Shown: positions 31,893 to 59,579, numbered from the stretch's first letter. The stretch is 64,000 nucleotides of DNA from Deltaproteobacteria bacterium (GCA_034670305.1 JAXMNT010000018.1:32001-96000), one strand, 5' to 3'. Notes: generated from the letters alone by a model not told the origin. A program made the numbers and translations.

Positions 31893-33263
31893 TCACTTCT
31901 TCTTGCTCGGGTGCACGCCGTGGCGCTTCGCGAGTTTGTGAAGGTACTTGCGATCCATATCCGCGGCACGCGCGGCCGCCGAGATGTTGCCCTCGTGCCG
32001 CTCGAGCAACCAGCTCACGTACCGGCGTTCGAAGAGCTCCTCGAACGCGGTCTTGGTCTGGCGGTAGCTCAGGCCGGGATCGAACGCGGGCACGATGTCC
32101 GAGCCACCGAGCGGGATGCCGACCGGCACATGCCCAAGGCGGATCTCGCTCTCGCCCACTGCGCGCGCGAGGTAGACCCCGCGGGCCAGCGCGTTGCGGA
32201 GCTCGCGCACGTTGCCGGGCCAGTCGTGTTCGGAGAGCGCGTCGAGCGCCGACTTGGCGATCGTCAGCGGCGGCAGCTTGGGTTCGTCTTTGCTCAAGTC
32301 GGCGAGCAGCCGCTCGACCAGGACCGGGAGGTCCTCGAGCCGTTCCCGGAGCGAAGGCAGCTCGATCGGCACGACCGCCAGCCGGAAGTAGAGGTCCTCC
32401 CGGAACTTCTTCCGCTCGACCTCCATGCGCAGGTTGCGTTTGGTCGCGGCGATGACCCGGATGTCGACCCGATGTTCGGTGTTGCCGCCCACCCGGCGGA
32501 AGGCACGCTGCTCGAGCACCCGGAGCAACTTGGGCTGCAGGTCGAGCGGCAGCTCGCCGATCTCGTCCAGAAAGAGGGTGCCGCCGTCGGCCAACTCGAA
32601 CGCGCCTTGGCGTGCGGCGGTGGCGCCCGTGAACGAACCCTTCTCGTGACCGAAGAGTTCACTCTCGATGAGCGTGCCCACGACTGCGCCACAGTCCACC
32701 ACGATGAACGGCCGCGCGCGCCGGCCGCTCTCCGAGTGAATCGAACGCGCGAGCACATCCTTGCCGGTGCCCGTCTCGCCGCCGATCAACACGGTGGCGT
32801 CGCTCGGGGCAATCTTCTCGAGCAGTCCGAAAATCTGCCGCATGCGCAGACTGCGCCCGACCACTTCGCCGAAGTTGCGGCGTTCGCTCGGCAGCACTTC
32901 GATGCGCTCGGCGAACGTGCGCACCTTCAGTTCGACCTTGCCGACGGTGAGGATGGCGCCCGGGCGAAGGAACGCCTCCCGGATCTCGGCTCCATCGAGC
33001 AGGGTGCCGTTGGTGCTGCCCAGGTCCCGCACGACGTGGCCGCGGGTCTCCCGAACGATCTCGCAGTGGTTCCGGGAAACGGTGCCGTCCCGCAGGACCA
33101 GGTGGTTGTCGCGGCTCTTGCCGATGCGACAGACCTCGCCCTGGACGGTGTGCTCGTCTCCGCGCCGGTCGCCGGAGAGCACGACCAGGGCAAGGCGCGG
33201 GATCTCGACGATCCGGCCCTTGCCTCCCAGTTCGGTCCCCAGACCTGTTTGCGGTTCGCTCAC
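31893..33263 (-). CDS. FHA-domain sigma54-dependent activator
   Basis: FHA ([16 protein letters not shown]), [28 protein letters not shown], Fis-type HTH. Confidence 0.95.
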
Positions 33264-39735: not shown

Positions 39736-40347
39736 TCAACCGCCGTAGCGGGGTGCGGCGCCTCGGCTGGGGTCGGCCGGCCGGGTGCGCAGCTCATGCG
39801 AGGCGGTGAGTTCCGCGACCATGTCTTCGACCCGGATGAGCCCCACGGGGCTCCCGCCGGCGTCGACCACCGGCACCTGCCGGAAGCCGCGTACGACGAC
39901 CCAGCGCAGCACGTCGGCCAGCGTGTCGCCGAGGTGCACGACTTCCGCGGCGCTCATGATGGATTCGAGCTGGGTGTCCCAGGGGAGCCCGCGCACGATG
40001 GCCTGGGCGATGTCTTCGAGCGTCACGATGCCCTGCAAGAGCCCGTCGTCGTCGACGACCAGCAGCACCCGCAGGCGGCCGTGGTTGTCCGTGCCATGCG
40101 CGGATGTTGGGTCGGCCTCTCCGACCGCGCCCATCGTCGTCGTGGGGAACGCGGCGGCGATGGCGTCGCCCAGCGTCGCGTCCATCGGCTCGATCTGAGC
40201 CGCGACGGTCGGGAGCTTGTCCACCCTGCGGGCGAGCACCTCACTCAAGTCCTTGTCGGAGGCCTCCACGCGTTCCGCTTGGATGCGCAACTCGTCGGCG
40301 ATGGCGTCGTCGAATGGAGAGAGGGAGAGCTTTTCGTAGTCGATCAT
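39736..40347 (-). CDS. CBS-domain protein
   Basis: LLVVDDDGLLQGIVTLEDI and VPVVDAGGSPVGLIRVEDM. Confidence 0.85.
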   Translation of the reverse strand: MIDYEKLSLSPFDDAIADELRIQAERVEASDKDLSEVLARRVDKLPTVAAQIEPMDATLGDAIAAAFPTTTMGAVGEADPTSAHGTDNHGRLRVLLVVDDDGLLQGIVTLEDIAQAIVRGLPWDTQLESIMSAAEVVHLGDTLADVLRWVVVRGFRQVPVVDAGGSPVGLIRVEDMVAELTASHELRTRPADPSRGAAPRYGG

Positions 40348-40359
40348 GCCCCTTCACGG

Positions 40360-40376
40360 TGCAATCGGCGCGCCAG
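40360..40376 (-). promoter_or_regulatory. sigma54 -24/-12 promoter (CBS gene)
   Basis: CTGGCGCGCCGATTGCA; -12 C is 14 nt from ATG. Confidence 0.8.
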
Positions 40377-40462
40377 CTGGATCCCCCGGGTTTCCGAGCC
40401 GCGCCGCGTAGCGATTCGCTACATCCGAGACGGGATGGTCGTTTGTTGTTTGATCGTGCGGC

Positions 40463-41827
40463 TCAGCCGTCGTCCTGGGCACCCCAGCGATCGAGCTTTC
40501 GGTAGAGCGTCCGTCGGTCGACGCCCAGCACCTTGGCCGCCTGGGTCTTGTTGCCTGCGACCGCGCGCAGCACTCGGCGCACGTAGCGCTTCTCGAGCGT
40601 CTCGAGGGTGGGCATCTCCGAGGGGTCTTGGGTGTCGATGACCACCCGCGAACTCTCGAAGGACCGCACCTTCTCTGGCAGGTCGTCGATCGTCAGCTGG
40701 TCGAACCGGGCGAGCGTGACCGCGCGTTCGATGCAGTTCTGAAGCTCGCGCACATTGCCCGGCCAGTCGTACGCGAGGATGCGCTCGGCTGCGGGTTCCG
40801 AGAGTCCTTGGACCGCCCGGCCCGCGGACTCGGCGAACTGGGTGACGAAGTGCTGCGCGAGCCGCAGCACGTCGTGGCCGCGCGCGCGGAGCGGCGGGAG
40901 GTGGATGTTCACGACGTTGACTCGGTAGTAGAGATCTTCGCGGAACTGGCCCTTGGCGATCTCGGCTTCGAGATCTCGGTTGGTCGCGGTGACGATGCGT
41001 GTGTCGAATGGCTTCTCCTCCGAACCGCCGACCGGTCGAACCGTCCGCTCTTGGAGCGCACGCAAGAGCTTCGGCTGAAGCTCGATGTCGAGCTCGCCGA
41101 TCTCGTCCAGAAAGAGTGTGCCGCCGTTGGCATCCAAGAAGAGCCCCTGGCGCGCGCCCTTCGCGTCCGTGAACGCACCCTTCACGTGTCCGAAGAGTTC
41201 GCTCTCGAGCAGGTTCGCCGGCATGGCCGCGCAGTTGATCGCGACGAAGCGCCCGGTGCGCCCGCTGCGTTTGTGCAGCGCGCGCGCGGCGAGCTCCTTG
41301 CCGGTGCCGCTCTCACCACTGACGAGCACGGTGGTGTTGCTGTCACCGATGCGGTCGATCAGGTCGAACACCTCGCGCATCGGCTGGCTGCGACCGAGCA
41401 TGTCGAAGTCGAGGGCCGGGCCTTCCACCTCGCGGCGCAGTCGCCGCACTTCGGCGGTGAGCTCGCGATGGGAGGTGGCGCGTTTCACAGAGGCGCGGAG
41501 TGCGTCCGCGTTGAACGGTTTGCCGAGGTAGTCGTACGCGCCGGCGCGCAAGGCGCCGATCGCGGTGTCGATGGTCGAGTAGCCCGTCATCACCACGACC
41601 GGGATGTCCGGGCGTCCCGAGATGACGGACTCGCAGAGCTTCAGGCCGCTGCCTTCTCCGATGCGGAGGTCGGTGAGCACCAAGTCGAGATCGTCGATCG
41701 CTTTGGCGAGCCGGGTTCCATCCTCTTCGGTGGCTGCGGTGGTGACCGTGTAGCCCTCGCGTTCGAGGAGGTGCTGGGCCAGTTCGAGGATCTCTCGTTC
41801 GTCGTCGACGATCAGTACGTGGGTCAT
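40463..41827 (-). CDS. NtrC/AtoC-family sigma54-dependent response regulator
   Basis: REC (VLIVDDE, LTD, KPF), [36 protein letters not shown]. Confidence 0.96.
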
Positions 41828-41840
41828 GTGGGTCCGTCTT

Positions 41841-41857
41841 TGCGATGTTCGTGCCAC
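41841..41857 (-). promoter_or_regulatory. sigma54 promoter (response regulator, possibly autoregulated)
   Basis: GTGGCACGAACATCGCA; -12 C is 15 nt from ATG. Confidence 0.7.
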
Positions 41858-41922
41858 ACATTTTCATGCGGTTTGTGCCTGAGAATGACACAACTGCGAC
41901 ACCGAGAGGCAAAACGCCACGC

Positions 41923-41997
41923 CACTGCGGTTCCCAAGGTCAGCACTGCGGTTCCGGAGGCCAGCACTGCGGTTCCTGGGGCCCGCACCGCGGGGCC
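41923..41997. repeat. 21-nt-period direct repeats CACTGCGGTTCC
   Basis: exact copies at 41923, 41944, 41965; degenerate copy at 41986. Confidence 0.85.
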
Positions 41998-42303
41998 CTA
42001 TCGCGGCCCGACGAACCGCCAGTCGAACCCACGGTCCACTGCGGATTGGGTAGGCCCTGGGTACACGATCCATCGGCGGGCCTCGAGCTGCGCCACGATC
42101 TGTTCGGCCTCGAGCAACGAACAACCGATGATCTCGCTGACCGAGTCGCGGATGGCGGTCCGGCCGGCCAGGTAGCCCGGTGGAGGAGCGGGACGGAGCG
42201 CGACCTCGCGGAGGAGCTCCGCGAGGTCGAGTCTGCCTTCGGCGAACGCGTCGCCACGGTCGTCCGTGTCGAACGGACCTTCGCTGGAGTCCACCACCTT
42301 CAC
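41998..42303 (-). CDS. small hypothetical protein (winged-helix-like)
   Basis: GTG overlaps dps stop; GYLAGRTAIRDSV..GCSLLEAEQIV..LE..WI. Confidence 0.65.
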   Translation of the reverse strand: MKVVDSSEGPFDTDDRGDAFAEGRLDLAELLREVALRPAPPPGYLAGRTAIRDSVSEIIGCSLLEAEQIVAQLEARRWIVYPGPTQSAVDRGFDWRFVGPR

Positions 42304-42860
42304 GAGGGGGTGCTTCCGAGTCGAGGGGCCGCGACCGGTTGTTTGCCGGCCAGCCGATGACGTTCGGGGTGCGAGAGGCGCTGGAGGGTCGACGCCCTCA
42401 GCATCCATGCGTGTTTCTCCAGACCGGTGAGCACACCGATCAGCAGGTCGTGGCTCCCGACGTCCATGGGTTCGAGGATCGAGAGGCGATCTCGAATCGC
42501 GGCGGCCGTCATGAGCAGCCGCTCCACCATGAGGTGGGCGGCATCTTCGTCTTGAACGAAGAAGGTGGGCGGTGCGGGCAGGGTCGTCGACGCGCTGATC
42601 TGCTGGGCGGTGCCGATGGGGGCGACGCCCAAGGCGGAGCAGCGCTCCGCGACGTCGTCGCTCCACGCGCGCACATCCGCAACGATCTCATCGAGGTGCA
42701 TGTGCAAGGGGCGGAAGGACGGACCGACGACGGTCCAGTGAAGTTGTTTGCTCTGGAGGGCGACGTCGATGAGCTGCACGAGCGTGGCTTGCAGTTCGGC
42801 CGCGACGGCGTCGCGGTGGGCGTCGGAGAGGGTGGTTTCGAATCGATGGTCGATGATCAT
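42300..42860 (-). CDS. dps: Dps-family ferritin-like protein
   Basis: KQLHWTVVGPSFRPLHMHLDE..DDVAER, LEKHAWML. Confidence 0.9.
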   Translation of the reverse strand: MIIDHRFETTLSDAHRDAVAAELQATLVQLIDVALQSKQLHWTVVGPSFRPLHMHLDEIVADVRAWSDDVAERCSALGVAPIGTAQQISASTTLPAPPTFFVQDEDAAHLMVERLLMTAAAIRDRLSILEPMDVGSHDLLIGVLTGLEKHAWMLRASTLQRLSHPERHRLAGKQPVAAPRLGSTPS

Positions 42861-42872
42861 GCATCGAGGTAG

Positions 42873-42889
42873 TGCAAGCCCTGGTCCAC
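42873..42889 (-). promoter_or_regulatory. sigma54 promoter (dps)
   Basis: GTGGACCAGGGCTTGCA; -12 C is 14 nt from ATG. Confidence 0.7.
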
Positions 42890-43029
42890 CCACCCAGACC
42901 CGGCGTTTTCGTCGGCCTCCGTGGCGGCTTGCCCCGGGTGGGGCACTCGGTCCGCCGCAGTTGCGGGGAATGCACCCCCTCCGATCACTCGGCGCTTGCT
43001 CCCGCCCCGAAAGCCAGCGAAAGAAGAGG

Positions 43030-44517
43030 ATGATTCCGGTCCTGGAGCTGCCCCTGGCCAACGCGGGAGACGTCTCGTTCGCGCGCGGTCGAGCGTTCCG
43101 ACTGGCGAGCAAACTCGACCTCTCCCCACCGGACAAGACCCGTGTGGCGGTGGTCGCGGGCGAGCTTGCGCAGCGTGGGTTCGAGACCAAGCCAGCGACA
43201 CTCACGCTCGGCATCGACCGAGACGATCTCTGGCTTCAGCTGCGCGTCCCCGGCGGCATCGACTTCGACGAAGAGCTTCTGGGTGCGAGCCAGCTCCTCG
43301 ACGATGCGGCGCACGAGCAGGACACCCTGGTGTTGAAAACGAAGTTGCCGAACCCGCCCGTCTTGACGGATGCGTACGTCGCGGCCCTTCGGATCGAGTT
43401 GCTCGCGAGCGACCCAGGCGACGCGCCGGCGTCGGTCAAACGTCAGAACCGCGAGCTCGTGCTCGCACTCGCGGAGCAGGAGGCGTCTGCCGCCGCACTT
43501 CGGGCCAGCGAAGAACGGCTCAAACTGGCGGTGCGCGCGGCTGGTCTCGGTAGCTGGGAACTCGACGAGGACGAACTCATTCTGTCTCAGCGTGCCGCCA
43601 AACTGCTGGATGTTCAGGGCGACGTCACGCTCGACATGCTGGCGGCGAAGCTCGGTCCGCGAGGGGCAGAGTTGCTCGAAGCGCTCGAGCTGCTGCAGGC
43701 ATCGGGCGAGCCGCTGCACGTGGAGTTCAAGATGCCAAGCGGACGCTGGCTCGCGTTTCACGGGGCGCGGCTGACGAACAAACGAAAGAAACGTCGTCGC
43801 ATCACCGGCGCGGTGCTCGATGTCACCGAACACCGGGAGCGCGAAGAAGAGATGCGCAAGCGGCTCGATTTCGAACGCCAGCTCGTCGGCATCGTCAGCC
43901 ACGACTTGAAGTCCCCCCTCACCGCGATCTCGATGGGCGCGAGCATGCTCGAGGGCGCTGACGACTTCGTCGTCGACCGCATCAAGCACTCGGTGAAGCG
44001 CGCGCAACAGCTCATCTACGACCTGCTCGACTTCACGCACGCCCGGCTCGGCAGCGGCATTCCGATCTCCCCGCAGCGCACCGACATCGCGCAGGTCGTC
44101 GCGACGACCGTGGAACAGATGCAGTTCGCGCACCCAGACCATACGTTCGAACTCTTGCCGTACGGGGCCGTCTTCGCGATGGCCGACGAACCGCGGCTCG
44201 AACAGGTCGTGACGAACCTGCTGGCCAACGCGGTGGAGTACGGTGACTCGAAGCGGCCGATCGTCGTGCGCTGCTTCGAAGAAGACGGGCTGGCCATCGT
44301 CTCGGTGCGCAACGAAGGCGAGCCCATCGACCAGGATCGCGTGCACACCATCTTCGAGCCGCTCGAACGCGACGAGCCCGCCGAGAGCGGTTCGCTCGGG
44401 CTCGGACTCTTCATCGTCGATCAACTCGTGCGTGCGCACGAGGGCGAAGTGGAGGTGCATTCGGGCGAGGACGGAACCGAGTTCCAGGTGCGCCTCCCGC
44501 TGGCAGCGGGCGCCTAG
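43030..44517 (+). CDS. cytoplasmic sensor histidine kinase: degenerate RsbT-like N-terminus, PAS, HisKA, HATPase
   Basis: DVSFARGRA..DKTRVAVVAGELA; SEERLKLAVRAAGLGSWE; SHDLKSPL; NLLANA; GLGLFIV. Confidence 0.92.
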   Translation: MIPVLELPLANAGDVSFARGRAFRLASKLDLSPPDKTRVAVVAGELAQRGFETKPATLTLGIDRDDLWLQLRVPGGIDFDEELLGASQLLDDAAHEQDTLVLKTKLPNPPVLTDAYVAALRIELLASDPGDAPASVKRQNRELVLALAEQEASAAALRASEERLKLAVRAAGLGSWELDEDELILSQRAAKLLDVQGDVTLDMLAAKLGPRGAELLEALELLQASGEPLHVEFKMPSGRWLAFHGARLTNKRKKRRRITGAVLDVTEHREREEEMRKRLDFERQLVGIVSHDLKSPLTAISMGASMLEGADDFVVDRIKHSVKRAQQLIYDLLDFTHARLGSGIPISPQRTDIAQVVATTVEQMQFAHPDHTFELLPYGAVFAMADEPRLEQVVTNLLANAVEYGDSKRPIVVRCFEEDGLAIVSVRNEGEPIDQDRVHTIFEPLERDEPAESGSLGLGLFIVDQLVRAHEGEVEVHSGEDGTEFQVRLPLAAGA

Positions 44518-44530
44518 AGCGCGGAGAGTT

Positions 44531-45064
44531 TCACCCCTCCGAATCGGCGGTGGCGGCGTGTCGGTACGCGCGCTGCAACAACTCGCGCCCCGCGTGGGTG
44601 GTCTCGAGCGTCGCCAGCCGCGCGGTGTTCAGCGCGAGTTCCAACCAGCGGTCCAGCGCGCTCCGGGTGCTCTCGTGAAGGGAGACGGGCGTCGAGCGGA
44701 GCAAGCGCAGACTGTGGAGTCGACCCTCGAGCTGGGCGTAGGCGCGGGCGAGTTTCCGCACCATGCGGCGGTCGCGGCCGAGGTCGTGGAGGAGTCGAAC
44801 CACGCTGGCGTCGAGACCTCGTTTGTGGGCATGCAAGGGCGCCAGAAACGCGTCCAGCGTGTCCGCACGCGAATCGGGGTCGGATGTGAGCGCAGCTTGC
44901 AAGCGCACGCGGAGCAGGTCCGCCTGCGCCTTCAGGTCGTCCTCCAGCCCCGTGAGATTCAGCATCCCCGCGTCGCGTGTTTCCGCGCACGGGTGCACGC
45001 CGCTGGGCGAATCCTCGGTCCCGTCTTCCTGGGTAGATGATTGCAGTTTGGGTGCTTGTTCCAT
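44531..45064 (-). CDS. hypothetical helical protein
   Basis: RBS gaagga; own sigma54 motif; coherent helical sequence. Confidence 0.65.
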   Translation of the reverse strand: MEQAPKLQSSTQEDGTEDSPSGVHPCAETRDAGMLNLTGLEDDLKAQADLLRVRLQAALTSDPDSRADTLDAFLAPLHAHKRGLDASVVRLLHDLGRDRRMVRKLARAYAQLEGRLHSLRLLRSTPVSLHESTRSALDRWLELALNTARLATLETTHAGRELLQRAYRHAATADSEG

Positions 45065-45100
45065 GGTCGTTCCTTCACGTGACGCATCGCGGGAAAGAGG

Positions 45101-45117
45101 TGCAACTCCCGGTCCAG
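45101..45117 (-). promoter_or_regulatory. sigma54 promoter
   Basis: CTGGACCGGGAGTTGCA; leadered (38 nt to ATG, SD present). Confidence 0.65.
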
Positions 45118-45235
45118 CCGGAACACGCCCGACCGCACATGTCACCGGGGCACATCGCCCCGAGCGTGTCGCATCGCCCCCGCGTTCCGACCACGGCCGC
45201 ACGGTTCTGCCTCCTGATCCACCGCGGTCGGCGGG

Positions 45236-45252
45236 TCGGCACGGACTTCGCA
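45236..45252 (+). promoter_or_regulatory. sigma54 promoter
   Basis: TCGGCACGGACTTCGCA; -12 C is 15 nt from ATG 45266. Confidence 0.6.
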
Positions 45253-45265
45253 ATGCACCCTGGTC

Positions 45266-45742
45266 ATGACCAAGACACACAAGACCCTTCTGGTGGCGGC
45301 GTCGCTCTTCTTCGGCGTCGCATGTAGCGAATCGACGGAAGACGCACTCGAGATGACCGCCGCGTCTGCGCGCAACGACCTGGTCGCAACCGGGGTGGCC
45401 GCGCACGAGGTGGTCGAGGAGACCCACGAGGCCGTGGACGACGAAGCCGCCGCCGCGCTCCTCGCGTTGCGGACCGCCGACCAAGCGCTGACGGAACGCG
45501 CCCGCGAGGCCGCCGACCGCCTCCAGGAGACCGACGAAGAAGCCGCCGACGCGCTCCGAGCGGCCGCCGCCGAAGCGGAGGCCGCCAATGTCCGCACGGG
45601 TCAAGCCATCGTGCGCGAGACCCGCGGCGCGGCGGCTGAGATTCGAGCCGAGGCCCGCGCACTCGGCCGCGGTGCCGCCGCCACAGTGCGCGAAGCGGAC
45701 CAAGCCGGCGAACGCGCCGAAGAGGCCGCCGAGCGCGAATGA
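45266..45742 (+). CDS. Ala/Glu-rich helical lipoprotein (LEA/stress-like)
   Basis: lipobox FGVA/C; low-complexity A/E/R helix. Confidence 0.75.
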   Translation: MTKTHKTLLVAASLFFGVACSESTEDALEMTAASARNDLVATGVAAHEVVEETHEAVDDEAAAALLALRTADQALTERAREAADRLQETDEEAADALRAAAAEAEAANVRTGQAIVRETRGAAAEIRAEARALGRGAAATVREADQAGERAEEAAERE

Positions 45743-45814
45743 CTCGGGCACGCTCCTCCATACATACACTTTTCATTCACTGACTCCCACAGCCCCGTTC
45801 TCGAAAGGAACCCC

Positions 45815-45982
45815 ATGCTTCGCTGGTCCATTACATTTTTCATCCTCGCGTTCGTTGCAGCCGTCTTCGGATTTGGAGGCATCGCAGCCGGCGCGGTCTC
45901 GATCGGCAAGATCCTCTTCGTCGGATTCCTGATCATCGCCATCGCCACCCTCATCATGGGGCGACTGCCCCGCGAAACGTGA
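45815..45982 (+). CDS. DUF1328 / UPF0391 small membrane protein (absent from the ORF track)
   Basis: MLRWSITFFILAFVAAVFGFGGIAAGAVSIGKILFVGFLII..; RBS aagga. Confidence 0.93.
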   Translation: MLRWSITFFILAFVAAVFGFGGIAAGAVSIGKILFVGFLIIAIATLIMGRLPRET

Positions 45983-46007
45983 ACTGAACGCGCTCGCCCC
46001 CAAGCCA

Positions 46008-46052
46008 GGCGACGGCCGCCTCACCTCCGGGTGGGGCGGCCGTCGCCGTTCT
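46008..46052 (+). terminator. hairpin terminator after DUF1328
   Basis: ggcgacggccgcctcacc-tccg-ggtggggcggccgtcgcc then gttct. Confidence 0.65.
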
Positions 46053-46103
46053 CGTACGCGGTGCTGGTGCGCCCCACCGGCCCTCACTGCCTACCACGCG
46101 AGA

Positions 46104-46120
46104 TTGGCACAGGGTGTGCG
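46104..46120 (+). promoter_or_regulatory. sigma54 promoter
   Basis: TTGGCACAGGGTGTGCG; -12 C is 14 nt from ATG 46133. Confidence 0.7.
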
Positions 46121-46132
46121 TTCAGTGGCGAT

Positions 46133-46888
46133 ATGCCTCCCACGACCCACGGCCATTCATTCGCCACACTTAGGCGCCTTCTTGCGGTGCTGGCGCTCTT
46201 CTCCATCGCGATCCCGGCCGAAGCACAGCGCGACCCCCGCGGCGACGCACCGTCCAACGCCTCCTCGCCCAACGAGGTCGCGCAGCCAGGCGAGCCGATC
46301 GGGGACGACGACATGAACCTCGAGACCGCGACGCCCGATCCCTCTCCGCCGGTTCCGCGGATCCTCCAGCGCGACATGTCCGAGGCTCGCTTGGACGTCA
46401 TCGAACAAGCGGGCGTCGGTGGCCCGACCGCGTATGCCTCTGCTGGCGTGCTCGAAGTCGGCGGCACCGGATCGTTGTTCGCGACCGACGAGTACGTCGG
46501 AGCGCGGCTCGCCCCGTTCGTCGGCTGGTTTCTCTTCGACGGCATCGAGCTCAGCTACATCCACGAGATCTACGGCGGTGCGTTCCAAGGCGAACGGTTC
46601 TTCGGCACCGTGCTCTACATCGAACTCAGCGCGCACCTGCGTTTCGGAGATCGTTTGCTCGGCTTCCTCGGCCTCGCGCCGGGACTTCTCTACAACGGCG
46701 AGGACACCGGCTTCGCGATCAAACCGCGCATGGGCTTCGACGTGCTCGTCGGCCGCTCGGGCATCTTCCGGCCGGACATCTACTTCGTATGGGCCACCGA
46801 TCCACTCATCGTGCCGGTGAACCACCCGGCCGCGCCGAGCGCGCGTTGGGGCTACGGACTCGAGATCAGCTACGCCGCGATGTTCTGA
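46133..46888 (+). CDS. putative outer-membrane beta-barrel protein
   Basis: signal peptide ..PAEA/Q; amphipathic strands; C-terminal YAAMF. Confidence 0.75.
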   Translation: MPPTTHGHSFATLRRLLAVLALFSIAIPAEAQRDPRGDAPSNASSPNEVAQPGEPIGDDDMNLETATPDPSPPVPRILQRDMSEARLDVIEQAGVGGPTAYASAGVLEVGGTGSLFATDEYVGARLAPFVGWFLFDGIELSYIHEIYGGAFQGERFFGTVLYIELSAHLRFGDRLLGFLGLAPGLLYNGEDTGFAIKPRMGFDVLVGRSGIFRPDIYFVWATDPLIVPVNHPAAPSARWGYGLEISYAAMF

Positions 46889-46963
46889 GCGGCTGTGGCG
46901 TGGCGCTTCGCCCCGCCGTCGCAGGGCCGCCCCAACCCCTGAGTTCAACCATGCACGAAGCCA

Positions 46964-46980
46964 CCGGCACGGCACCTGCA
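46964..46980 (+). promoter_or_regulatory. sigma54 promoter
   Basis: CCGGCACGGCACCTGCA; -12 C is 14 nt from ATG 46993. Confidence 0.7.
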
Positions 46981-46992
46981 CTACCCAACGAC

Positions 46993-47574
46993 ATGAACCT
47001 GATGAACACCCCACTCGCCTGGTTGCTCGTCCTTCCCGCCGCCTGTGCCCATGGTTCGGGCGTCGAGGCCGAGACGACCTCCGCCACCACCCCGTCCGAG
47101 TACGCTGCCGAGGCGGCGTACCCAGAGCCGATCGCCGTCGTCACGACCGGCGTTCGAGACCAGGACGGCGACCCGTCGATGGTTGAAGTCGACGTCTCGC
47201 TCGCTGCCCCCGCGCTCCCTCCGGAACCGGTCGTGAGCCAGGACGTGTGCCCTGAGCCGCTGGTCTACTTTGCGCTCGACTCGGCCGTGCTCGATGCCGA
47301 TGCGCAGCATCGACTCGCGGAGTTCGCCGAGTGCGCCCGTTCGGTGGAAGCAGAGCGCATCCGCGTCTCCGGCCACGCCGACCCGCAGGGCACCGACGCC
47401 TACAACCGCCGCCTCGCCCTCGAGCGCGCACAGCAGGTGGAGCAGCACCTTCGCGACGAGCTCGGTCTGACCGTCCCCATCGAGGTCGCAGCCCACGGCG
47501 AAGACCGCGCCCGCAACCGAGTGCTCTGGCCCAACGACCGTCGCGTCGAGGTCGAGCTCATCGAAGGCAGCTGA
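46993..47574 (+). CDS. OmpA-like peptidoglycan-binding lipoprotein
   Basis: lipobox PAA/C; VYFALDS, GHADPQG..YNRRLALERA, NDRRVEV. Confidence 0.9.
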   Translation: MNLMNTPLAWLLVLPAACAHGSGVEAETTSATTPSEYAAEAAYPEPIAVVTTGVRDQDGDPSMVEVDVSLAAPALPPEPVVSQDVCPEPLVYFALDSAVLDADAQHRLAEFAECARSVEAERIRVSGHADPQGTDAYNRRLALERAQQVEQHLRDELGLTVPIEVAAHGEDRARNRVLWPNDRRVEVELIEGS

Positions 47575-47630
47575 CACCCGCTGCAGTCCCTCCAACCCTT
47601 TCACTCCGAAACCCACCCCCAAGGAACCCC

Positions 47631-47870
47631 ATGAATCAGAAACAAGAACTCAAAGCCCGTGTCACCGCGAAAAAGAAGGAACTCGAAGCCCGGCTGGCCA
47701 CGCTCCGCGCCGACGCAGGAGCGGCTGCCCGCGATGAACGCGCCAAGATCGAGTCGAAGTTGAGCGAGCTCAAGACATCGATGACCGACGGTTGGAACGA
47801 CCTGACCGAAGACGTCTCGGCCAAGCTCAACGGCTGGCTGAAGGACGACAATCCCGACATCAACGCGTGA
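47631..47870 (+). CDS. small coiled-coil protein (stress-associated type)
   Basis: RBS aagga; MNQKQELKARV...GWNDLTEDVSAKLNGWLK. Confidence 0.75.
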   Translation: MNQKQELKARVTAKKKELEARLATLRADAGAAARDERAKIESKLSELKTSMTDGWNDLTEDVSAKLNGWLKDDNPDINA

Positions 47871-48050
47871 CCCGGTGGGTTCTCACCGAACCCATCCCCG
47901 AACAAACAAGACGGCGGCCCAGCAGACATCTGTTGGGCCGCCGTCGTTTGGTGGCCAGCGTGCGCTCCGGGCGGCGACTGAGGCGTGGAGGCGATCGTGC
48001 CACACGCGTGGCGTGGCGCCCCACCCGGGTCCGTTTCTCGGTGTTTGAGG

Positions 48051-48067
48051 CCGGTACGGTTGCTGCA
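48051..48067 (+). promoter_or_regulatory. sigma54 promoter
   Basis: CCGGTACGGTTGCTGCA; -12 C is 14 nt from ATG 48080. Confidence 0.65.
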
Positions 48068-48079
48068 AATACCCTCCGC

Positions 48080-48703
48080 ATGAAAATGAACATCACACAC
48101 AAGCCGACTTCGTTCGCTGTGGTGTGCGCTCTGTCCGCCTGTGGGCATTCGACCGCGCCACCAGCGAGCACGACCCCCGAACCCGCACCGCCGCTGAGCG
48201 CCGTGATGGAGACCGAGCCTCTGCAAGAGATCGAAGTCGCCGCGCACACACCGTCGACCGAACGAGACGCCTTGGTGCCGATCGACGAGTCGCGCTGGAC
48301 CGGACGCGAGGCGCTGACGCTCGAAGGCAACGATCTGATCGTCGACCGACTCGCCGTTCGCAGCCTCCCCGACGGAGTCCGCGCGTACCGCGTCTCGACC
48401 CAGCCGGAGACCTTCGAGCTCCGCAACGAAGAGGGGCGCCTCGCGGTCATCGAACGCCAGACCTGGAGCTCGGTCGCACAACCCGGCGCCCACCCCATCG
48501 GTCCGGTGCGGGTGCGCGAACGCGCCGTTCAGCTCGACGACTGGGACGGGGAACGCGCCAACGTGATCCTGCAGCACTGGTCGGACGACATGTACGTCTA
48601 CACGGTGGAGCATCTGCCAGACGCCGCGTGGGTCGGCCTGCAGCTCGACCTCGACCCGACCCTCCGCGCGACCGCGTCTGCCAACAATGAGGTGGCACAG
48701 TGA
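48080..48703 (+). CDS. hypothetical lipoprotein
   Basis: lipobox LSA/C; stop overlaps the mscS GTG. Confidence 0.7.
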   Translation: MKMNITHKPTSFAVVCALSACGHSTAPPASTTPEPAPPLSAVMETEPLQEIEVAAHTPSTERDALVPIDESRWTGREALTLEGNDLIVDRLAVRSLPDGVRAYRVSTQPETFELRNEEGRLAVIERQTWSSVAQPGAHPIGPVRVRERAVQLDDWDGERANVILQHWSDDMYVYTVEHLPDAAWVGLQLDLDPTLRATASANNEVAQ

Positions 48704-49626
48704 AATCGTTCTCAGAACTCTACAACCGCCTCCTCGAAACCCTCAACAGCTGGCTGACCGACGGGGTCGCCTGGGCGCCCCGCCTACTCGTCGCCCTCGT
48801 TGTCCTCGGCATCTTCTGGATGCTCGGCAAGGGCGTGCGCCGCGGCGTGACGAAGGCCCTCGCCCGCACGAAGATGTCGGCCAGCGCCTCCGATCTCTTG
48901 GCACGCGCGGCACACTTCATCGTCATCCTGGCTGGGCTGATGGCCACCCTGAGCGTGCTTCAGCTCGATGAAGCGGTGACCGGCGTGCTCGCGGGTGCCG
49001 GTGTCGTCGGCCTCGCGCTTGGATTCGCCTTTCAAGACCTTGCGTCCAACCTCATCAGCGGCGTCGGGCTCTCGGTTCGCCATCCGTTCCGACAGGGCGA
49101 CATCATCGAATCCAACGGCGTGCTCGGTGTGGCCGAGAGCATCGAACTGCGGGTGACCGTCATCCGCACCCTCGACGGCAAACGCGTCATGGTGCCCAAC
49201 AAGAAGATCTTCCAGGACGTGCTCATCAACCACAGCACCTCCGGCACGAGGCGCGTGGAAGTCGCGTGCGGCGTCTCCTACGACACCGATCTCGACATGG
49301 CGAAGGCGACCGCGCTCGAAGCGCTCGGTCAGCTCGAGTGCCTGATCGACGGACGCGAACCCGAAGTCTTCTTCGGAGAGTTCGGCGACAGCTCGATCAA
49401 CTTCGACGCCCGGGTCTGGATCGCATACGAGAGCCAGCTCGACTACCTCCGCGCGAAGGACGAACTCGTGCGGGCCCTCAAGAAGGCATTCGACGCCAAG
49501 GGCATCGACATCCCGTTCCCGATTCGAACCCTCGAACTCGGCGAGTCCGCCTCCGCCACCATCACCCAGCTCCGCAAACTCGAGAGCCTTGGTGGAGACG
49601 ACGACACGAGCCAAGAAGCCGCCTGA
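48700..49626 (+). CDS. mscS: small-conductance mechanosensitive channel
   Basis: GLALGFAFQDLASNLISG, PFRQGDII, VPN, GVSYDTD, IDIPFP. Confidence 0.95.
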   Translation: MKSFSELYNRLLETLNSWLTDGVAWAPRLLVALVVLGIFWMLGKGVRRGVTKALARTKMSASASDLLARAAHFIVILAGLMATLSVLQLDEAVTGVLAGAGVVGLALGFAFQDLASNLISGVGLSVRHPFRQGDIIESNGVLGVAESIELRVTVIRTLDGKRVMVPNKKIFQDVLINHSTSGTRRVEVACGVSYDTDLDMAKATALEALGQLECLIDGREPEVFFGEFGDSSINFDARVWIAYESQLDYLRAKDELVRALKKAFDAKGIDIPFPIRTLELGESASATITQLRKLESLGGDDDTSQEAA

Positions 49627-49663
49627 CCCAGGCGCCAACGCACCCCGAAGTGCAACACCCCAG

Positions 49664-49698
49664 GCGGCCGTTCCCGAAAGGGAGCGGCCGTTTTCTTT
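49664..49698 (+). terminator. intrinsic terminator
   Basis: gcggccgttccc-gaaa-gggagcggccgt followed by tttcttt. Confidence 0.85.
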
Positions 49699-49835
49699 CG
49701 TACATGTGGACTCCCGACGGGTGCGGCCATGTGTTCGCCTGTGTGCCGGCACGACAGGCGCACACATGTGGCGAGGCAAGCCGCCTCATTGCGGCAGCTT
49801 GCGTCACCCACCCATCGCGCTCGGGCCGCATTTCG

Positions 49836-49852
49836 TTGGCCCGGTCCGTGCT
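49836..49852 (+). promoter_or_regulatory. sigma54 promoter
   Basis: TTGGCCCGGTCCGTGCT; -12 C is 14 nt from ATG 49865. Confidence 0.65.
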
Positions 49853-49864
49853 TTGTAGGGAGGC

Positions 49865-50518
49865 ATGAAACGACGAACCCTCACTTCACTTCTGTCCGCG
49901 GTCGCCCTGCTCGGCACGTGGGCATTCGCCACCACCGCCCACGCCCAGCGCGACAACGGCCGCATGACGATCCGCGCCGACGTCGGGGTGCTCGGCTACT
50001 CGGAACTCATCGACGAGGACAACCCCGACAACCGGGTCTACGAAGACCTCGACGAGACATTCGGCATGTCCCTCGCTGTCGAGCGCCCCTTCCACCGCTT
50101 CGGCTGGGTGGGCTTTCAGATCGGCGCCCACGGGTGGCGCCCCGAGACCAGCGACGGCTACGAGCTGCGCCGCAACGTGTACGTCGACGCCGACTTCCTC
50201 CCCACCCTGCGCGTCCCCTTTCAGCGTGACCCGCACGGCAGCGCGTTCTACGCCGGCGGCGTCCTCGGCTTCACCGGCGCCTTCCTCCGAGACGAGTACT
50301 CGAACGCCTTCGCCCGCGCCGACCACGGCTTCGGATTGCACGCAGGCCTCCGCGCCGGCGTCGAGATCCTCGTGCACCGTGGCGGCATCGTCGCGGAGTT
50401 CGGCTACGACGTCCGCGTCACCCGCCACCGCGTCGACCGCCCCGTCTTCAACGACGACGCCGTCGCCCTCGTCTTCCGCCAACCCCGCTTCAGCCTAGGC
50501 TTCGTGACCCGCTACTGA
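49865..50518 (+). CDS. putative outer-membrane beta-barrel protein
   Basis: signal peptide ..AHA/Q; amphipathic strands; terminal aromatic residue. Confidence 0.75.
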   Translation: MKRRTLTSLLSAVALLGTWAFATTAHAQRDNGRMTIRADVGVLGYSELIDEDNPDNRVYEDLDETFGMSLAVERPFHRFGWVGFQIGAHGWRPETSDGYELRRNVYVDADFLPTLRVPFQRDPHGSAFYAGGVLGFTGAFLRDEYSNAFARADHGFGLHAGLRAGVEILVHRGGIVAEFGYDVRVTRHRVDRPVFNDDAVALVFRQPRFSLGFVTRY

Positions 50519-56142: not shown

Positions 56143-56610
56143 ATGAAGATCGACATCGGCATCGAACAAGAGAAACGCGCAGAGATCGCCAAAGGGCTCT
56201 CCCGCGTGCTCGCGGACTCCTACACCCTCTACCTCAAGACCCACAACTTCCACTGGAACGTCACCGGTCCCATGTTCCAGACCCTGCACTTGATGTTCGA
56301 GACCCAGTACACCGAGCTCGCGCTCGCCGTGGATCTGGTCGCCGAGCGCATCCGCGCCCTCGGCTTCCCGGCGCCGGGCACCTACCGCGAGTTCGCGGAG
56401 CTCTCCGCCATCGACGAAGAAGTCGGCGTGCCCGCCGCGCAAGACATGATCCACAAACTCGTCGCCGCCCACGAGACCGTGGCGCGGACCAGCCGCGAGG
56501 TCTTCAAGATCAGCGAAGCCGTCAGCGACCAGCCCACCTGCGATCTGCTCACCCAGCGCATGCAGGTCCACGAGAAGACCGCGTGGATGCTGCGCAGCCT
56601 GCTCGAGTGA
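56143..56610 (+). CDS. dps: Dps DNA-protection protein
   Basis: LYLKTHNFHWNVTGPMFQTLHLMFE..DLVAERIR, HEKTAWML. Confidence 0.97.
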   Translation: MKIDIGIEQEKRAEIAKGLSRVLADSYTLYLKTHNFHWNVTGPMFQTLHLMFETQYTELALAVDLVAERIRALGFPAPGTYREFAELSAIDEEVGVPAAQDMIHKLVAAHETVARTSREVFKISEAVSDQPTCDLLTQRMQVHEKTAWMLRSLLE

Positions 56611-57278: not shown

Positions 57279-59414
57279 TCAGTAGCCGATGCGCGCTGCC
57301 GCTTTCGAGAGCCGTGCCGCTACGTGGTCCCAAGGATCGTCTTCCGCCCGCTTGAAGGCAACTGCCATCGCTTCCGCTGCCGCCGCGAGTTCGGGCATCT
57401 CACCCTTGTACGTTGAAGCGAGGCGCTGAAGCTTGCCCACCGGCGCCTTCCCAATGACGTCGTGTGCCGCCTTCCGATGCTCGCGGAGCAAGCTGCTGAT
57501 GACCTGCGCGTGTGCTGCCGCGTCGATGAGTGTGAGGAGCGGTTGTTCCTTCCTCTTGTGCTCGCGGAGCTGGCGCAGGTGGACCAGGGTCGTTTCGGCC
57601 TTCTTCCGTTCTCCTCGCGCAGCTTGGATTCGAGCCAGATGCCGACGCAGGCCATGCGCGGGATACGGCTTGTCGTCATCGGTCACCCAATCGAGCGCGT
57701 CGAGCTTCGCTCGGTCCACTGCAGCGCCCAGCTCTTCGAGATCGCCCGACGGGTTCTCCAGCATGTGAGCCACCAGTCGGGCCCAGTGCAGCGCACCGAA
57801 GCCCTGAGGGATGCCCGTGAGCCGGTTGACCTCATCGGCGATGGCAGTGTGGCTCGGGTCAACACCGAGTGCGGTCGCCAGGTGCGCCAGTGCGCAATCG
57901 AAGTCGCCGGCGTACGTCTCGAGCTGGGCGCGGTATTGATGCTGCTGGGCGACGTCGTGGGGTGCGTCGAACTCCGCGAGTGCTGCTTCACTCAGCGCTC
58001 TCGCTTTGGCGAAGGCCTCCGGCTCACGGAGCCCCCGGTACATCTCGGCTTGCATCGCGGTTCCCAGCGCTCGCGCACGTTGGTCGGAGCCGACCTCCTC
58101 AGGGAAGACTTCCGGTAGGAGGGTGTTGAAGAGGCTGCCAAGCTCGCCGTAGTAGTCCGCGACCAAGCGGGCCCGCCGCGACGCCACCTCGTGCTCGAAG
58201 CAATCGGTGAGGTGGACTGCTTGGTGGGTGAGCGCGTCGAGGATCGGCTCGGCGTGCTCCCAGCGTCCCCCGAGTTCGTGGACAGCGTCGTCGATCGCTT
58301 TGCACGCTTCGCGCGCGGTCTTTGGCTCGCCTGCATGGTTGGCGGCAGTCAGGTCGTATCTGTGTACGACCAATCGATGCGCCGCGAGTGCCGGGTCGCG
58401 TTCAGGCACCCACTTCTGCAATGGCTTCATCACGTCCTTCTGAATCCACTGGATCAGCTGTTTCGCGAGGACCGAATCGCGGCGCTCCTCGGCGACCGAG
58501 TGGAGCCAATCCTCGAGAGCACGAAGCTGAATGCGTCGAGACGCCGCCGGCAACATGCCGAGCTGTTCGAGGAGTTTCGCCCGCAAGCTGCTGAGTCGCC
58601 GGCGGGGTTCGTCCATGAGTCGATCCGCGACGAGCTCTTCCCCGACTGCACGTAGTGCAAGTCCTACGGCGCCTTCTTCCGCTGCGGCGCGGGCACGTCG
58701 TTCCACGTCGACCGAAGCCACGCTGACGTCGTACTCACCAAACGCACTACGAACGGTGCGCTTGGCGGACTCGCCCAGTCTATAGTACCCATCATGGCTC
58801 GCGTTGCTCAGAACGTCGCAGATCTGGAGCCGCCGATCAGTGCGACCAGATCCCAGCTCCACACCCTCAACTTGCCAGAGTGCCGATGTCGCCGCGTGGC
58901 CGCGGCGGGCACTGACGTCGCCGAGTCGGCTACGAACGGCTGAGAGGTATCGGTTGCGCTCGATCTGAACTCCGCCCTTCACCATGTAGCGCGCGGCGAA
59001 GAGTCTGAGTGTGACCTGCTCTCCGCTTACCGATGGCGCGAGCCGTTCGAAGATCCGCGCACAGAGTTCCGCGACCAGCGTGACGTAGGTGTTGGAGATC
59101 GAGTCTTCGGCCAGGCGCTCGCGGTTCTCGAAACGGACGGGCTGCCAACCCAGCTCCACGACACCGTTGGCGACCTCAGTGGCGAGCGTGTCGTAGCGTT
59201 CACCACGGCCGAGTTCCGTCGCGTGTAGCAGCTTCTCGAGAGTGCTGCCGTTCGCGCCTGTTGCAGCACGGAGGAGTGCTTCCGCCCGCTTCTCGGTCAC
59301 GTGACCGGCCGGGCCGAAGAAGCCGACCAACTGACTCGCGAACGGGACGTCTCCGTCTCTCTCTCCCTCTTCGAACTTCCCGCTCTCGTCCAAGCACAAC
59401 TGATAGGTCTTCAT
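57279..59414 (-). CDS. DUF3800-like (RNase H fold) domain fused to a long TPR-like helical region
   Basis: N-terminal YQLCLDESG...RLQICDVLSN; about 470 aa helical C-terminus (RARALGTAMQAEMY, HQYRAQLETYAG); alternative start 59441. Confidence 0.75.
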   Translation of the reverse strand: MKTYQLCLDESGKFEEGERDGDVPFASQLVGFFGPAGHVTEKRAEALLRAATGANGSTLEKLLHATELGRGERYDTLATEVANGVVELGWQPVRFENRERLAEDSISNTYVTLVAELCARIFERLAPSVSGEQVTLRLFAARYMVKGGVQIERNRYLSAVRSRLGDVSARRGHAATSALWQVEGVELGSGRTDRRLQICDVLSNASHDGYYRLGESAKRTVRSAFGEYDVSVASVDVERRARAAAEEGAVGLALRAVGEELVADRLMDEPRRRLSSLRAKLLEQLGMLPAASRRIQLRALEDWLHSVAEERRDSVLAKQLIQWIQKDVMKPLQKWVPERDPALAAHRLVVHRYDLTAANHAGEPKTAREACKAIDDAVHELGGRWEHAEPILDALTHQAVHLTDCFEHEVASRRARLVADYYGELGSLFNTLLPEVFPEEVGSDQRARALGTAMQAEMYRGLREPEAFAKARALSEAALAEFDAPHDVAQQHQYRAQLETYAGDFDCALAHLATALGVDPSHTAIADEVNRLTGIPQGFGALHWARLVAHMLENPSGDLEELGAAVDRAKLDALDWVTDDDKPYPAHGLRRHLARIQAARGERKKAETTLVHLRQLREHKRKEQPLLTLIDAAAHAQVISSLLREHRKAAHDVIGKAPVGKLQRLASTYKGEMPELAAAAEAMAVAFKRAEDDPWDHVAARLSKAAARIGY

Positions 59415-59545
59415 GTCGTCCCCCGCTTCGTTCCATTGCATGGCGCGTAGGCCTCGGCCTTGTGCCGGCCAGCCCCTCGCGCGACTACCCCAACGCGTAG
59501 GCTAGTACGCGGGCTCCTTGAACTGGAGGCGTCCGACTCGTGAGG

Positions 59546-59574
59546 TGTCAGGTCTTGATTCGCAGAACGTCTAC
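59546..59574 (+). promoter_or_regulatory. ECF41-like promoter, near-leaderless
   Basis: TGTCAG-N16-CGTCTAC-N5-ATG. Confidence 0.55.
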
Positions 59575-59579
59575 TCGGC

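Follow-up and report, generated by a model that had tools for sequence, protein, structure and literature searches.

The window examined here, a 64,000-nucleotide (nt) stretch of DNA from a Deltaproteobacteria bacterium (GCA_034670305.1, JAXMNT010000018.1:32001-96000), contains between positions 39,736 and 50,518 a compact group of genes that we call the island. Genes for an NtrC-type response regulator and a histidine kinase are embedded there among genes for a Dps-like ferritin, a mechanosensitive channel and probable envelope proteins, and many of these genes are preceded by a predicted sigma-54 promoter placed almost directly before the start codon. The host genome (7.9 Mb, 68% G+C, 96% complete) has a single rpoN gene and about 40 enhancer-binding activators.

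Genes and promoters of the island

The features of the island, in window coordinates, are as follows. Distances of palindromes are measured from their centres to the -24 GG of the promoter, and palindromes are scored with a matrix that was trained on relatives.

39736..40347, minus: CBS-domain protein, predicted leaderless start (PF00571 twice; site 13 nt upstream)
40361..40374, minus: sigma-54 site of the CBS gene (11.7 bits)
40407..40423, unstranded: putative activator palindrome, centre 41 nt before GG (12.1 bits)
40463..41827, minus: NtrC-type response regulator (receiver, AAA with GAFTDA, Fis-type helix-turn-helix; Pfam), predicted leaderless start
41842..41855, minus: sigma-54 site of the activator gene (12.6 bits, ATG at 14 nt)
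41905..41921, unstranded: putative activator palindrome, centre 58 nt before GG (14.3 bits; suggestive of autoregulation)
41998..42303, minus: small open reading frame (ORF) coupled to the dps stop codon (gene calls; no Pfam family)
42300..42860, minus: Dps-like ferritin, predicted leaderless start (PF00210, E 1.5e-16)
42874..42887, minus: sigma-54 site of dps (10.1 bits)
42920..42936, unstranded: putative activator palindrome, centre 41 nt before GG (16.6 bits)
43030..44517, plus: histidine kinase with degenerate RsbT-like domain, coiled coil, PAS-like domain, HisKA and HATPase (Pfam, hhalign, structure model)
44531..45064, minus: helical protein, Shine-Dalgarno (SD)-like start 37 nt after a sigma-54 site (no Pfam, NCBIfam or Atlas match)
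44959..45087, minus: possible 42-codon leaderless upstream ORF (ATG 14 nt after the -12 C)
45102..45115, minus: sigma-54 site, divergent pair, leftward (11.7 bits)
45146..45162, unstranded: putative activator palindrome common to the divergent pair (39 and 84 nt; 15.2 bits)
45165-45181, unstranded: weaker second palindrome of the divergent pair (58 and 65 nt; 8.1 bits)
45238..45251, plus: sigma-54 site, divergent pair, rightward (13.6 bits, ATG at 14 nt)
45266..45742, plus: Ala/Glu-rich probable lipoprotein, predicted leaderless start (signal peptide with Cys; no family match)
45815..45982, plus: DUF1328 (UPF0391) membrane protein, second gene, SD-like start (PF07043; NF010226 over cut-off)
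46106..46119, plus: sigma-54 site of barrel-1 (14.2 bits)
46133..46888, plus: probable outer-membrane beta-barrel 1, predicted leaderless start (Atlas look-alikes 0.95-0.98, some PF13505)
46899..46915, unstranded: putative activator palindrome, centre 59 nt before GG (15.6 bits)
46966..46979, plus: sigma-54 site of the OmpA-family gene (14.7 bits, ATG at 13 nt)
46993..47574, plus: OmpA-family probable lipoprotein, predicted leaderless start (PF00691)
47631..47870, plus: 79-residue coiled-coil protein, SD-like start (sequence)
48007..48023, unstranded: putative activator palindrome, centre 38 nt before GG (14.2 bits)
48053..48066, plus: sigma-54 site of the 48080 lipoprotein gene (15.2 bits, ATG at 13 nt)
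48080..48703, plus: probable lipoprotein, predicted leaderless start (no family match)
48700..49626, plus: MscS-family mechanosensitive channel, coupled to the previous gene (PF00924, PF21082)
49772..49806, unstranded: two putative activator palindromes, centres 58 and 40 nt before GG (16.9 and 11.5 bits)
49838..49851, plus: sigma-54 site of barrel-2 (13.3 bits, ATG at 13 nt)
49865..50518, plus: probable outer-membrane beta-barrel 2, predicted leaderless start (PF13505 E 0.003, below cut-off)

An initial annotation of this DNA had named most of these genes. Its CBS, ferritin/Dps-like, DUF1328, OmpA, MscS, activator and kinase assignments are supported by Pfam, whereas the cargo it termed LEA-like has no family match. 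Of the two beta-barrels it listed, barrel-2 has a weak OMP_b-brl match, and barrel-1 resembles outer-membrane barrel clusters by features only. The Dps-like ferritin finds Dps (NF006975) as its best NCBIfam match, at 87 bits and below the cut-off of 114, and a His/Asp/Glu pattern visible by eye resembles what we take to be the ferroxidase motif. Small ORFs similar to that at 41998..42303 follow dps in two related loci, L002 and L003 (by eye). The 42-codon ORF runs out of frame into the start of the helical-protein gene and may be due to chance. A terminator-like hairpin follows the MscS gene at 49662-49693. Farther along the window, at 56143-56610, another and more typical Dps-like gene lacks a sigma-54 site.

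All nine GG-N10-GC motifs previously claimed for the island are present, displaced by only 1-2 nt, with the first G of GG at 40374, 41855, 42887 and 45115 (minus) and at 45238, 46106, 46966, 48053 and 49838 (plus). Their GG and GC boxes stand 10 nt apart in the context TGGCACG-N4-TTGCW, the consensus printed in PMC12754779, and they score 10.1-15.2 bits with a sigma-54 matrix trained on the genome without this region. As had also been noted, the ATG lies 14-15 nt after the -12 C in eight of the nine, which we count as 13-14 intervening bases: 13 for the CBS, Dps, barrel-1, OmpA, 48080 lipoprotein and barrel-2 genes, and 14 for the activator and the 45266 lipoprotein genes. At the ninth site (45115), the main ATG is 37 nt away and is preceded by the SD-like word GAAGGA, and an out-of-frame ATG at 14 nt opens the 42-codon ORF.

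This arrangement is far more frequent in the island than in shuffled sequence. A site scoring 10 bits or more lies at 12-14 nt in eight of the 14 island starts, whereas 5000 shuffles give a mean of 0.003 and a maximum of 1; for bare GG-N10-GC at the same spacing the shuffles give a mean of 0.22 and a maximum of 3. The bare motif was nonetheless dropped as evidence, given its 198 copies in the region and 162,874 in the genome, and genome-wide it has no spacing peak other than codon periodicity. Orthologous islands keep their sites at 13-16 nt despite differing gene order and cargo. Indeed, the dps promoter can be aligned across four genomes, and its site is conserved in L002, L003 and L005, where it stands 13, 14 and 13 nt before the orthologous dps genes. 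In addition, the 79-residue coiled-coil protein has a 70%-identical L002 orthologue with a sigma-54 site of its own at 14 nt. The nine island sites are therefore described here as predicted sigma-54-type promoters.

A phased palindrome that follows the activator

The promoters of the island have in common a 17-bp palindrome, YG(T/A/G)GGCR-N3-YGCC(A/T/C)CR. Its core word, GGCG-N3-TGCC, occurs in 21 of 43 island-type promoters versus 2 of the 116 other promoters taken from this genome (p 2e-12, uncorrected for 130,275 words, and with divergent promoters sharing sequence). The 43 promoters came from eight activator loci, from which seven more sites had been dropped by eye as unlikely promoters. 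For a held-out test, a 17-bp palindromic matrix was trained solely on 34 promoters of relatives and applied at a threshold of at least 12 bits. A palindrome was found upstream of eight of the nine island promoters versus four of the 116 others (p 4e-9).

The position of the palindrome is also constrained. In the island its centre precedes the -24 GG by 38-41 or 58-59 nt, and once by 84 nt, and 33 of 48 palindromes overall lie at 38-43 or 58-64 nt. The 42 distances from other genomes follow a 10.5-bp period that none of 20000 random sets matched, these distances being limited to the range that the search pattern allowed. The order has 386 composite matches, of which 150 were listed. From these came a phasing sample of 60 stretches in 16 genomes, with every listed match in eight genomes, nine of 11 in one, and single picks in seven (three of them by eye); 39 of the 60 passed both matrices.

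The island activator combines a receiver, a sigma-54 AAA domain and a helix-turn-helix domain (PF00072, PF00158 with E 1e-66, PF02954). In a quick tree of 75 rows it falls in a clade of 29 rows with support 100, of which it is the sole member in this genome; a C-terminal helix, DRR/KTLYRKL, is shared by the clade with few exceptions, and its nearest named relatives, at 63-72% identity, come from Polyangiales and Myxococcota records. At five close loci (L002-L005, L008) the orthologous activator is surrounded by a rearranged version of the island. Of 18 clade genes (L089-L106, with L087 and L088 excluded as own and duplicate loci), 11 have a palindrome-promoter pair no farther than 1.5 kb away, versus 3 of 38 other activator loci of this genome. 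Another sigma-54 activator in the window, at 31893-33263, is outside the clade.

These findings suggest that the island activator reads the palindrome, binding being predicted. Of the local two-component pair that the initial annotation put in control, the activator now has sequence evidence on its side, in a phased palindrome that tracks its clade. An alternative is that another regulator reads the palindrome, or that the island answers to several of the roughly 40 activators, the local pair being mere neighbours. Seven of the 18 clade loci do have no palindrome-promoter pair within 1.5 kb, and barrel-1 has no upstream palindrome (best 1.5 bits). However, the palindrome precedes the activator's own gene here and in several relatives, it follows this clade and not other activators, and it is in helical phase with the sigma-54 site. 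We give this alternative only a slim chance.

At barrel-1, a palindrome-like copy of 10.3 bits at 46124-46140 covers the start codon, from where it could repress. The 21-bp tandem repeats at 41923-41993 were considered as activator sites and rejected, as their family (core GAACCGCAGTGC) is dispersed across many contigs, with arrays of up to five copies at about 30 places outside this one.

Start-codon spacing at sigma-54 promoters

The initial annotation had presented the near-leaderless spacing as a mark of this stress island. The spacing is real there, but it is genome-wide and class-wide, and specific neither to the island nor to stress genes. A genome-wide histogram of sigma-54-to-ATG distances, which had been proposed as a check, has a clear peak at 12-14 nt, and related Polyangia genomes have an excess there. 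With a fixed, untrained pattern, 40 of 154 genome sites have ATG at these distances (11, 23 and 6 at 12, 13 and 14 nt), whereas every other spacing from 5 to 29 nt has 0-5 ATGs. By our own gene calls (6350 genes), 124 genes have a site 11-17 nt before the start, 57 of them at 13 nt and one at 11 nt, and the peak persists under two-fold cross-validation by contig. Intergenic sites of at least 12 bits (n=164) divide into 93 near-leaderless, 51 leadered and 20 without assignment, where the first share may be inflated by a matrix trained on the near-leaderless class.

Across 28 other Polyangia genomes, which were taken from a 151-genome phylum sample and as kin are not independent, there are 497 matches at 12-14 nt versus 121 at 20-22 nt, the former being higher in 25. 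Outside the class the excess is patchy, being strong in G057 (38 vs 2) and G075 (24 vs 4) and absent from many genomes. The 41 genomes of the order around an Anaeromyxobacter record, again kin, give 271 matches versus 77 for the reversed pattern used as control, with 34 genomes higher. Five non-myxobacterial genomes give 23 matches at 12-14 nt versus 11 at 20-22 nt, counts too small for judging other phyla. The layout may nevertheless occur outside myxobacteria, because G327, the Gemmatimonadota record of L013, has six canonical-looking sigma-54 sites with ATG at 13-14 nt.

The near-leaderless layout is apparently this lineage's usual way of building a sigma-54 promoter, and is not stress-specific. 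What distinguishes the island is density, with eight near-leaderless sigma-54 genes in 11 kb versus at most three elsewhere in the genome. Sigma-70-type leaderless starts exist as well, TANNNT-N6-ATG being present at 41 of 520 confident starts genome-wide, with a second peak at nine bases (18). A crude signal-peptide test separated the promoter classes poorly (hydrophobic N-terminus 0.60, 0.49 and 0.38). Repeated transposase-like genes (by eye) also stand behind near-leaderless sigma-54 promoters (G000 C3:198147-199457, C3:211069-212379, C6:109043-110458 and C6:10324-11274), and in L165 an IS91-like transposase follows a composite palindrome-promoter site.

The spacing leaves no room for a transcribed SD sequence, as had been claimed, and an SD-like word precedes just 11 of the 124 near-leaderless genes. 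The further claim, that the ATG falls at +3/+4, depends on textbook spacing, and base composition instead favours an ATG that is often at +1. Among the 51 leadered promoters, C predominates at positions 12-13 after the -12 C (57% and 51%) and purines become commoner at 14-15, with pyrimidine-purine steps in 53 of 153 cases versus 82 of 357 (p 0.008). A pyrimidine directly precedes the ATG at 72 of 78 sites with 12-14 nt spacing versus 11 of 20 with 15-17 nt (p 0.0003). Both tests were chosen post hoc, after the table had been seen. The two patterns fit a start at a pyrimidine-purine step in which the A of ATG is +1, and we hold such a truly leaderless start to be probable, if not strongly so.

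A short but real leader of 1-4 nt, with +1 at the textbook 11-12 nt after the -12 C, nonetheless has a considerable chance of being correct. In differential RNA sequencing of B. japonicum, seven of the 22 distinct starts shown carry a canonical sigma-54 motif, their C-to-start distances being 10, 11, 11, 11, 12, 12 and 12 nt, if the printed sequences end at -1 (PMC4842269). Moreover, only the one gene among the 124 here has its start codon at 11 nt, and the sigma-70 leaderless class has a shoulder at +2/+3. Against a short leader stand the C-rich positions, the purine rise and the pyrimidine before ATG. This alternative would change a detail of initiation and leave the regulon as it is. Under either start rule the spacing predicts a leader of 0-4 nt, so the near-leaderless class would fall within the limit for leaderless mRNAs of up to 5 nt quoted in PMC12754779. 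That the annotated ATGs are true starts is supported by Dps homology from the first residues, a receiver domain from residue 4, and signal peptides that start at Met1.

It is also conceivable that the sites are inactive or repressive sigma-54 binding sites and that the genes are read with normal leaders from farther upstream. GGAGG directly before the barrel-2 ATG, together with the 11 SD-like words noted above, would suit such a scheme. However, a strict scan of the region found no sigma-70 consensus promoter, and the fixed 12-16 nt spacing, the phased palindromes and the conservation in rearranged islands are hard to explain without activity. We regard inactive sites as very improbable.

A proposed sigma-54 stress circuit and its relatives

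The kinase gene had been annotated as encoding a PAS kinase. A PAS-like alpha/beta domain does appear in a structure model (residues 174-264, with matches to LOV/PAS kinases), whereas Pfam returns no PAS match, and a better description would be an RsbT-like/PAS-like stressosome-output kinase. The protein is soluble, and its HisKA-HATPase portion is confirmed by Pfam. Its N-terminal 130 residues align with RsbT by hhalign (probability 75.7, E 2.4e-5, on small alignments of five and two rows), and weakly by plain BLASTP (E 0.17). Orthologues with 39-46% identity end rsbR-rsbS-rsbT operons in two relatives (L082, L083): in one (L082/L003) the orthologue closes an rsbR-rsbS-rsbT-phosphatase operon within a larger island, and in another the same operon is on a different contig. 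In the rsbT region of L082 (12558-13048), the C-terminal end of RsbT recurs in a short second frame, which may reflect a duplication or an error of assembly.

The kinase type occurs in 5 of 151 genomes of the order and a Dps orthologue in 3, versus 111 for the activator query (paralogues included; the tallies include one unpublished genome, G247). Several clade activators adjoin another, HAMP-type kinase. Because the kinase is rare, the activator widespread and other clade members lie beside a HAMP-type kinase, the kinase-activator pairing is plausible for this sub-clade only. A loose composite pattern for presence or absence across the order was rejected as noisy, since 115 of 151 genomes match and control hits are many.

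General-stress cargo such as Dps, MscS, DUF1328, CsbD, BON, universal stress proteins and HPF is usual for the RpoS, SigB (through the stressosome RsbRST) and EcfG responses. Considering its own cargo, which suggests a general-stress role, the island is likely to form the heart of a regulon for general stress or stationary phase, controlled by sigma-54 and the island's own NtrC-type activator. The phosphorylated activator would bind the palindromes on one helix face and open the promoters, its own included, which would create positive feedback. Transcription would begin on the ATG or up to about 4 nt from it, so that the first gene of each unit would be translated as a leaderless mRNA, and the downstream genes (DUF1328, coiled-coil, MscS) would be translated through SD-like sites or coupling. 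The signal would enter through the neighbouring RsbT-like kinase, here without a detected stressosome; this is the least certain step, which we favour by a little. Compared with the initial annotation, which proposed a self-contained sigma-54 general-stress programme with leaderless transcripts, the sigma-54 promoters, the general-stress-type cargo and the evidence for the activator stand, whereas the self-containment is overstated, the spacing is not specific to the island and the +3/+4 placement is somewhat less probable than a start on the ATG.

With regard to self-containment, the palindrome also precedes the sigma-54 site of at least three distant genes, for two universal stress proteins and one membrane protein, at a distance of 58-59 nt, and in the island itself five genes start without their own sigma-54 site. 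Because the distant universal-stress-protein genes carry the same switch, the regulon appears centred on the island and not confined to it. Weaker distant candidates encode a response regulator, a Ser/Thr kinase and a sigma factor. The islands of relatives (L002-L005, L008) each have some of Dps, MscS, DUF1328, CsbD, a baeRF3 protein and lipoproteins, with many sites 13-16 nt before ATG. The baeRF3-family proteins stand behind a palindrome plus a near-leaderless sigma-54 promoter at L003 5263-6429 and L008 6377-7552, and the L003 copy is similar, below cut-off, to the AOC03_06830 family of ribosome hibernation factors. Genes for sigma-70-family sigma factors are also found behind sigma-54 sites (L121 1863-2675, L185 196-1002, L186 192-998, L086 2362-2877), three of the four with a palindrome in range, and may represent a possible second tier of the regulon. 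Motif-selected promoters in 16 other genomes precede 42 genes, 26 with a Pfam family and 16 without; nine of the former encode what we take to be general-stress or stationary-phase markers (HPF, CBS, DUF1328 twice, BON, topoisomerase IB, transglycosylase-associated, bacterial OB-fold and dodecin). It also speaks for the sigma-54 circuit that no RpoS or SigB/F/G scores over its family cut-off in this genome (EcfG/PhyR lay outside this search).

Several observations weigh against a general-stress circuit of this kind. Those nine markers are just 9 of the 26 Pfam-assigned genes, ten others being regulatory and the rest mixed. The activator loop reads GAFTDA and not GAFTGA, as it does in 28 of 29 clade rows, the remaining one having GAFTGA. 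Barrel-1 lacks the upstream palindrome. The kinase gene has an SD-like start and no sigma-54 site, and its type is rare in the order, as described above. The stressosome gene set rsbR, rsbS, rsbT was not found in this genome: the RsbR N-terminal domain (RsbRD_N) has no match, and STAS gives two unlinked hits in long frames. Several group 2/3 sigma factors below the RpoS cut-off could serve stress genes too. Finally, CBS and universal stress proteins are targets of NmpR, a low-oxygen regulator, in M. xanthus (PMC11841059).

This last point raises the possibility that the same wiring has a narrower purpose, as a low-oxygen or energy-limitation regulon like that of NmpR. The NmpRSTU system resembles the island in its NtrC-type activator, sigma-54 promoters, palindromic enhancer and autoregulation (PMC11841059, PMC6211767), and in having a CBS gene next to the regulator, in its operon, and a universal stress protein in the regulon (PMC11841059); the clearest distant members here are likewise two universal stress proteins. 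The NmpR box, however, is a tandem GCGCA-N5-TGCGC, unlike the GGCR-N3-YGCC of the island, where a single copy of the NmpR box (with up to one mismatch) lies inside the CBS gene. NmpR is served by a protoglobin phosphorelay (NmpU/S/T), whereas the island kinase is RsbT-like and has no globin family match. The cargo, unlike that of the NmpR regulon, is of osmotic and stationary-phase type: it includes MscS, DUF1328 and Dps, and in relatives CsbD, BON and HPF, with no respiratory genes seen among them. Leaderless transcripts find no mention in the NmpR text consulted. We therefore judge an NmpR-like purpose unlikely and retain the general-stress interpretation.

Other relatives of the circuit are known. 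Sigma-54 activators of stress genes in M. xanthus include PexR, for peroxide (ahpC, katB; PMC12754779), and Nla28, for starvation (PMC9765219). PexR is a GAF one-component sensor with the box CACCG-N6-CGGTG, and Nla28 has the half-sites CT(C/G)CG(C/G)AG; neither is the island box. In D. vulgaris, one activator is listed under 'general stress response'. RpoS, SigB and EcfG responses resemble the island in type of cargo, and an rsbR-rsbS-rsbT operon is present in the related island L082/L003, but their output is an alternative sigma factor, whereas the island apparently acts through a histidine kinase and a sigma-54 activator. The Pseudomonas pair AlgB-KinB is said to act over DUF1328, BON and CsbD genes, a link for which we found no supporting paper and no sign in the text consulted of PMC6932827. 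Leaderless mRNAs behind sigma-70-type -10 boxes have the start codon at the 5' end and no SD sequence, as here (S. meliloti, PMC3616915; B. japonicum, PMC4842269), but the B. japonicum motif is an extended -10 box, whereas here the layout follows sigma-54 promoters. The PexR report mentions possible leaderless mRNA in myxobacteria, in its case at a sigma-A promoter (PMC12754779).

The initial annotation had considered its combination undescribed. Given PexR, NmpR and Nla28, sigma-54 stress circuits are known in Myxococcus, whereas sigma-54 leaderless mRNAs as a class, this palindrome and a stressosome-to-sigma-54 route are unreported in the open full-text literature searched, subscription papers being outside its scope. 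The parts are of known kinds, and the proposed wiring, which joins an activator clade, a phased palindrome, stress cargo, leaderless output and a stressosome-type kinase, would be a new version of such circuits. A wider proposal is that Polyangia have a fourth kind of general stress response, in which one sigma-54 activator clade reading the palindrome replaces RpoS, SigB or EcfG, possibly stressosome-fed via the RsbT-like kinase, and the output is mostly truly leaderless, as sigma-54 polymerase in this lineage would start on the A of the start codon at most of its promoters. We consider this extension doubtful.

If the circuit is as proposed, a general-stress regulator and its operator would be named for a large myxobacterial group for which we found none described, and the stressosome would gain a new type of output, formed by a kinase, an activator and sigma-54. 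Leaderless translation would be the main mode for sigma-54 genes in the lineage, which would affect start-codon annotation and the transfer of myxobacterial promoters into other hosts. A genome-wide start-site data set, obtained by Cappable-seq, exists for M. xanthus (E-MTAB-11042, named in PMC8844925).

Beyond the island, at window positions 57279-61124, a 720-residue ORF without a Pfam family lies beside an ARPP-1 plus DSP-type phosphatase gene.

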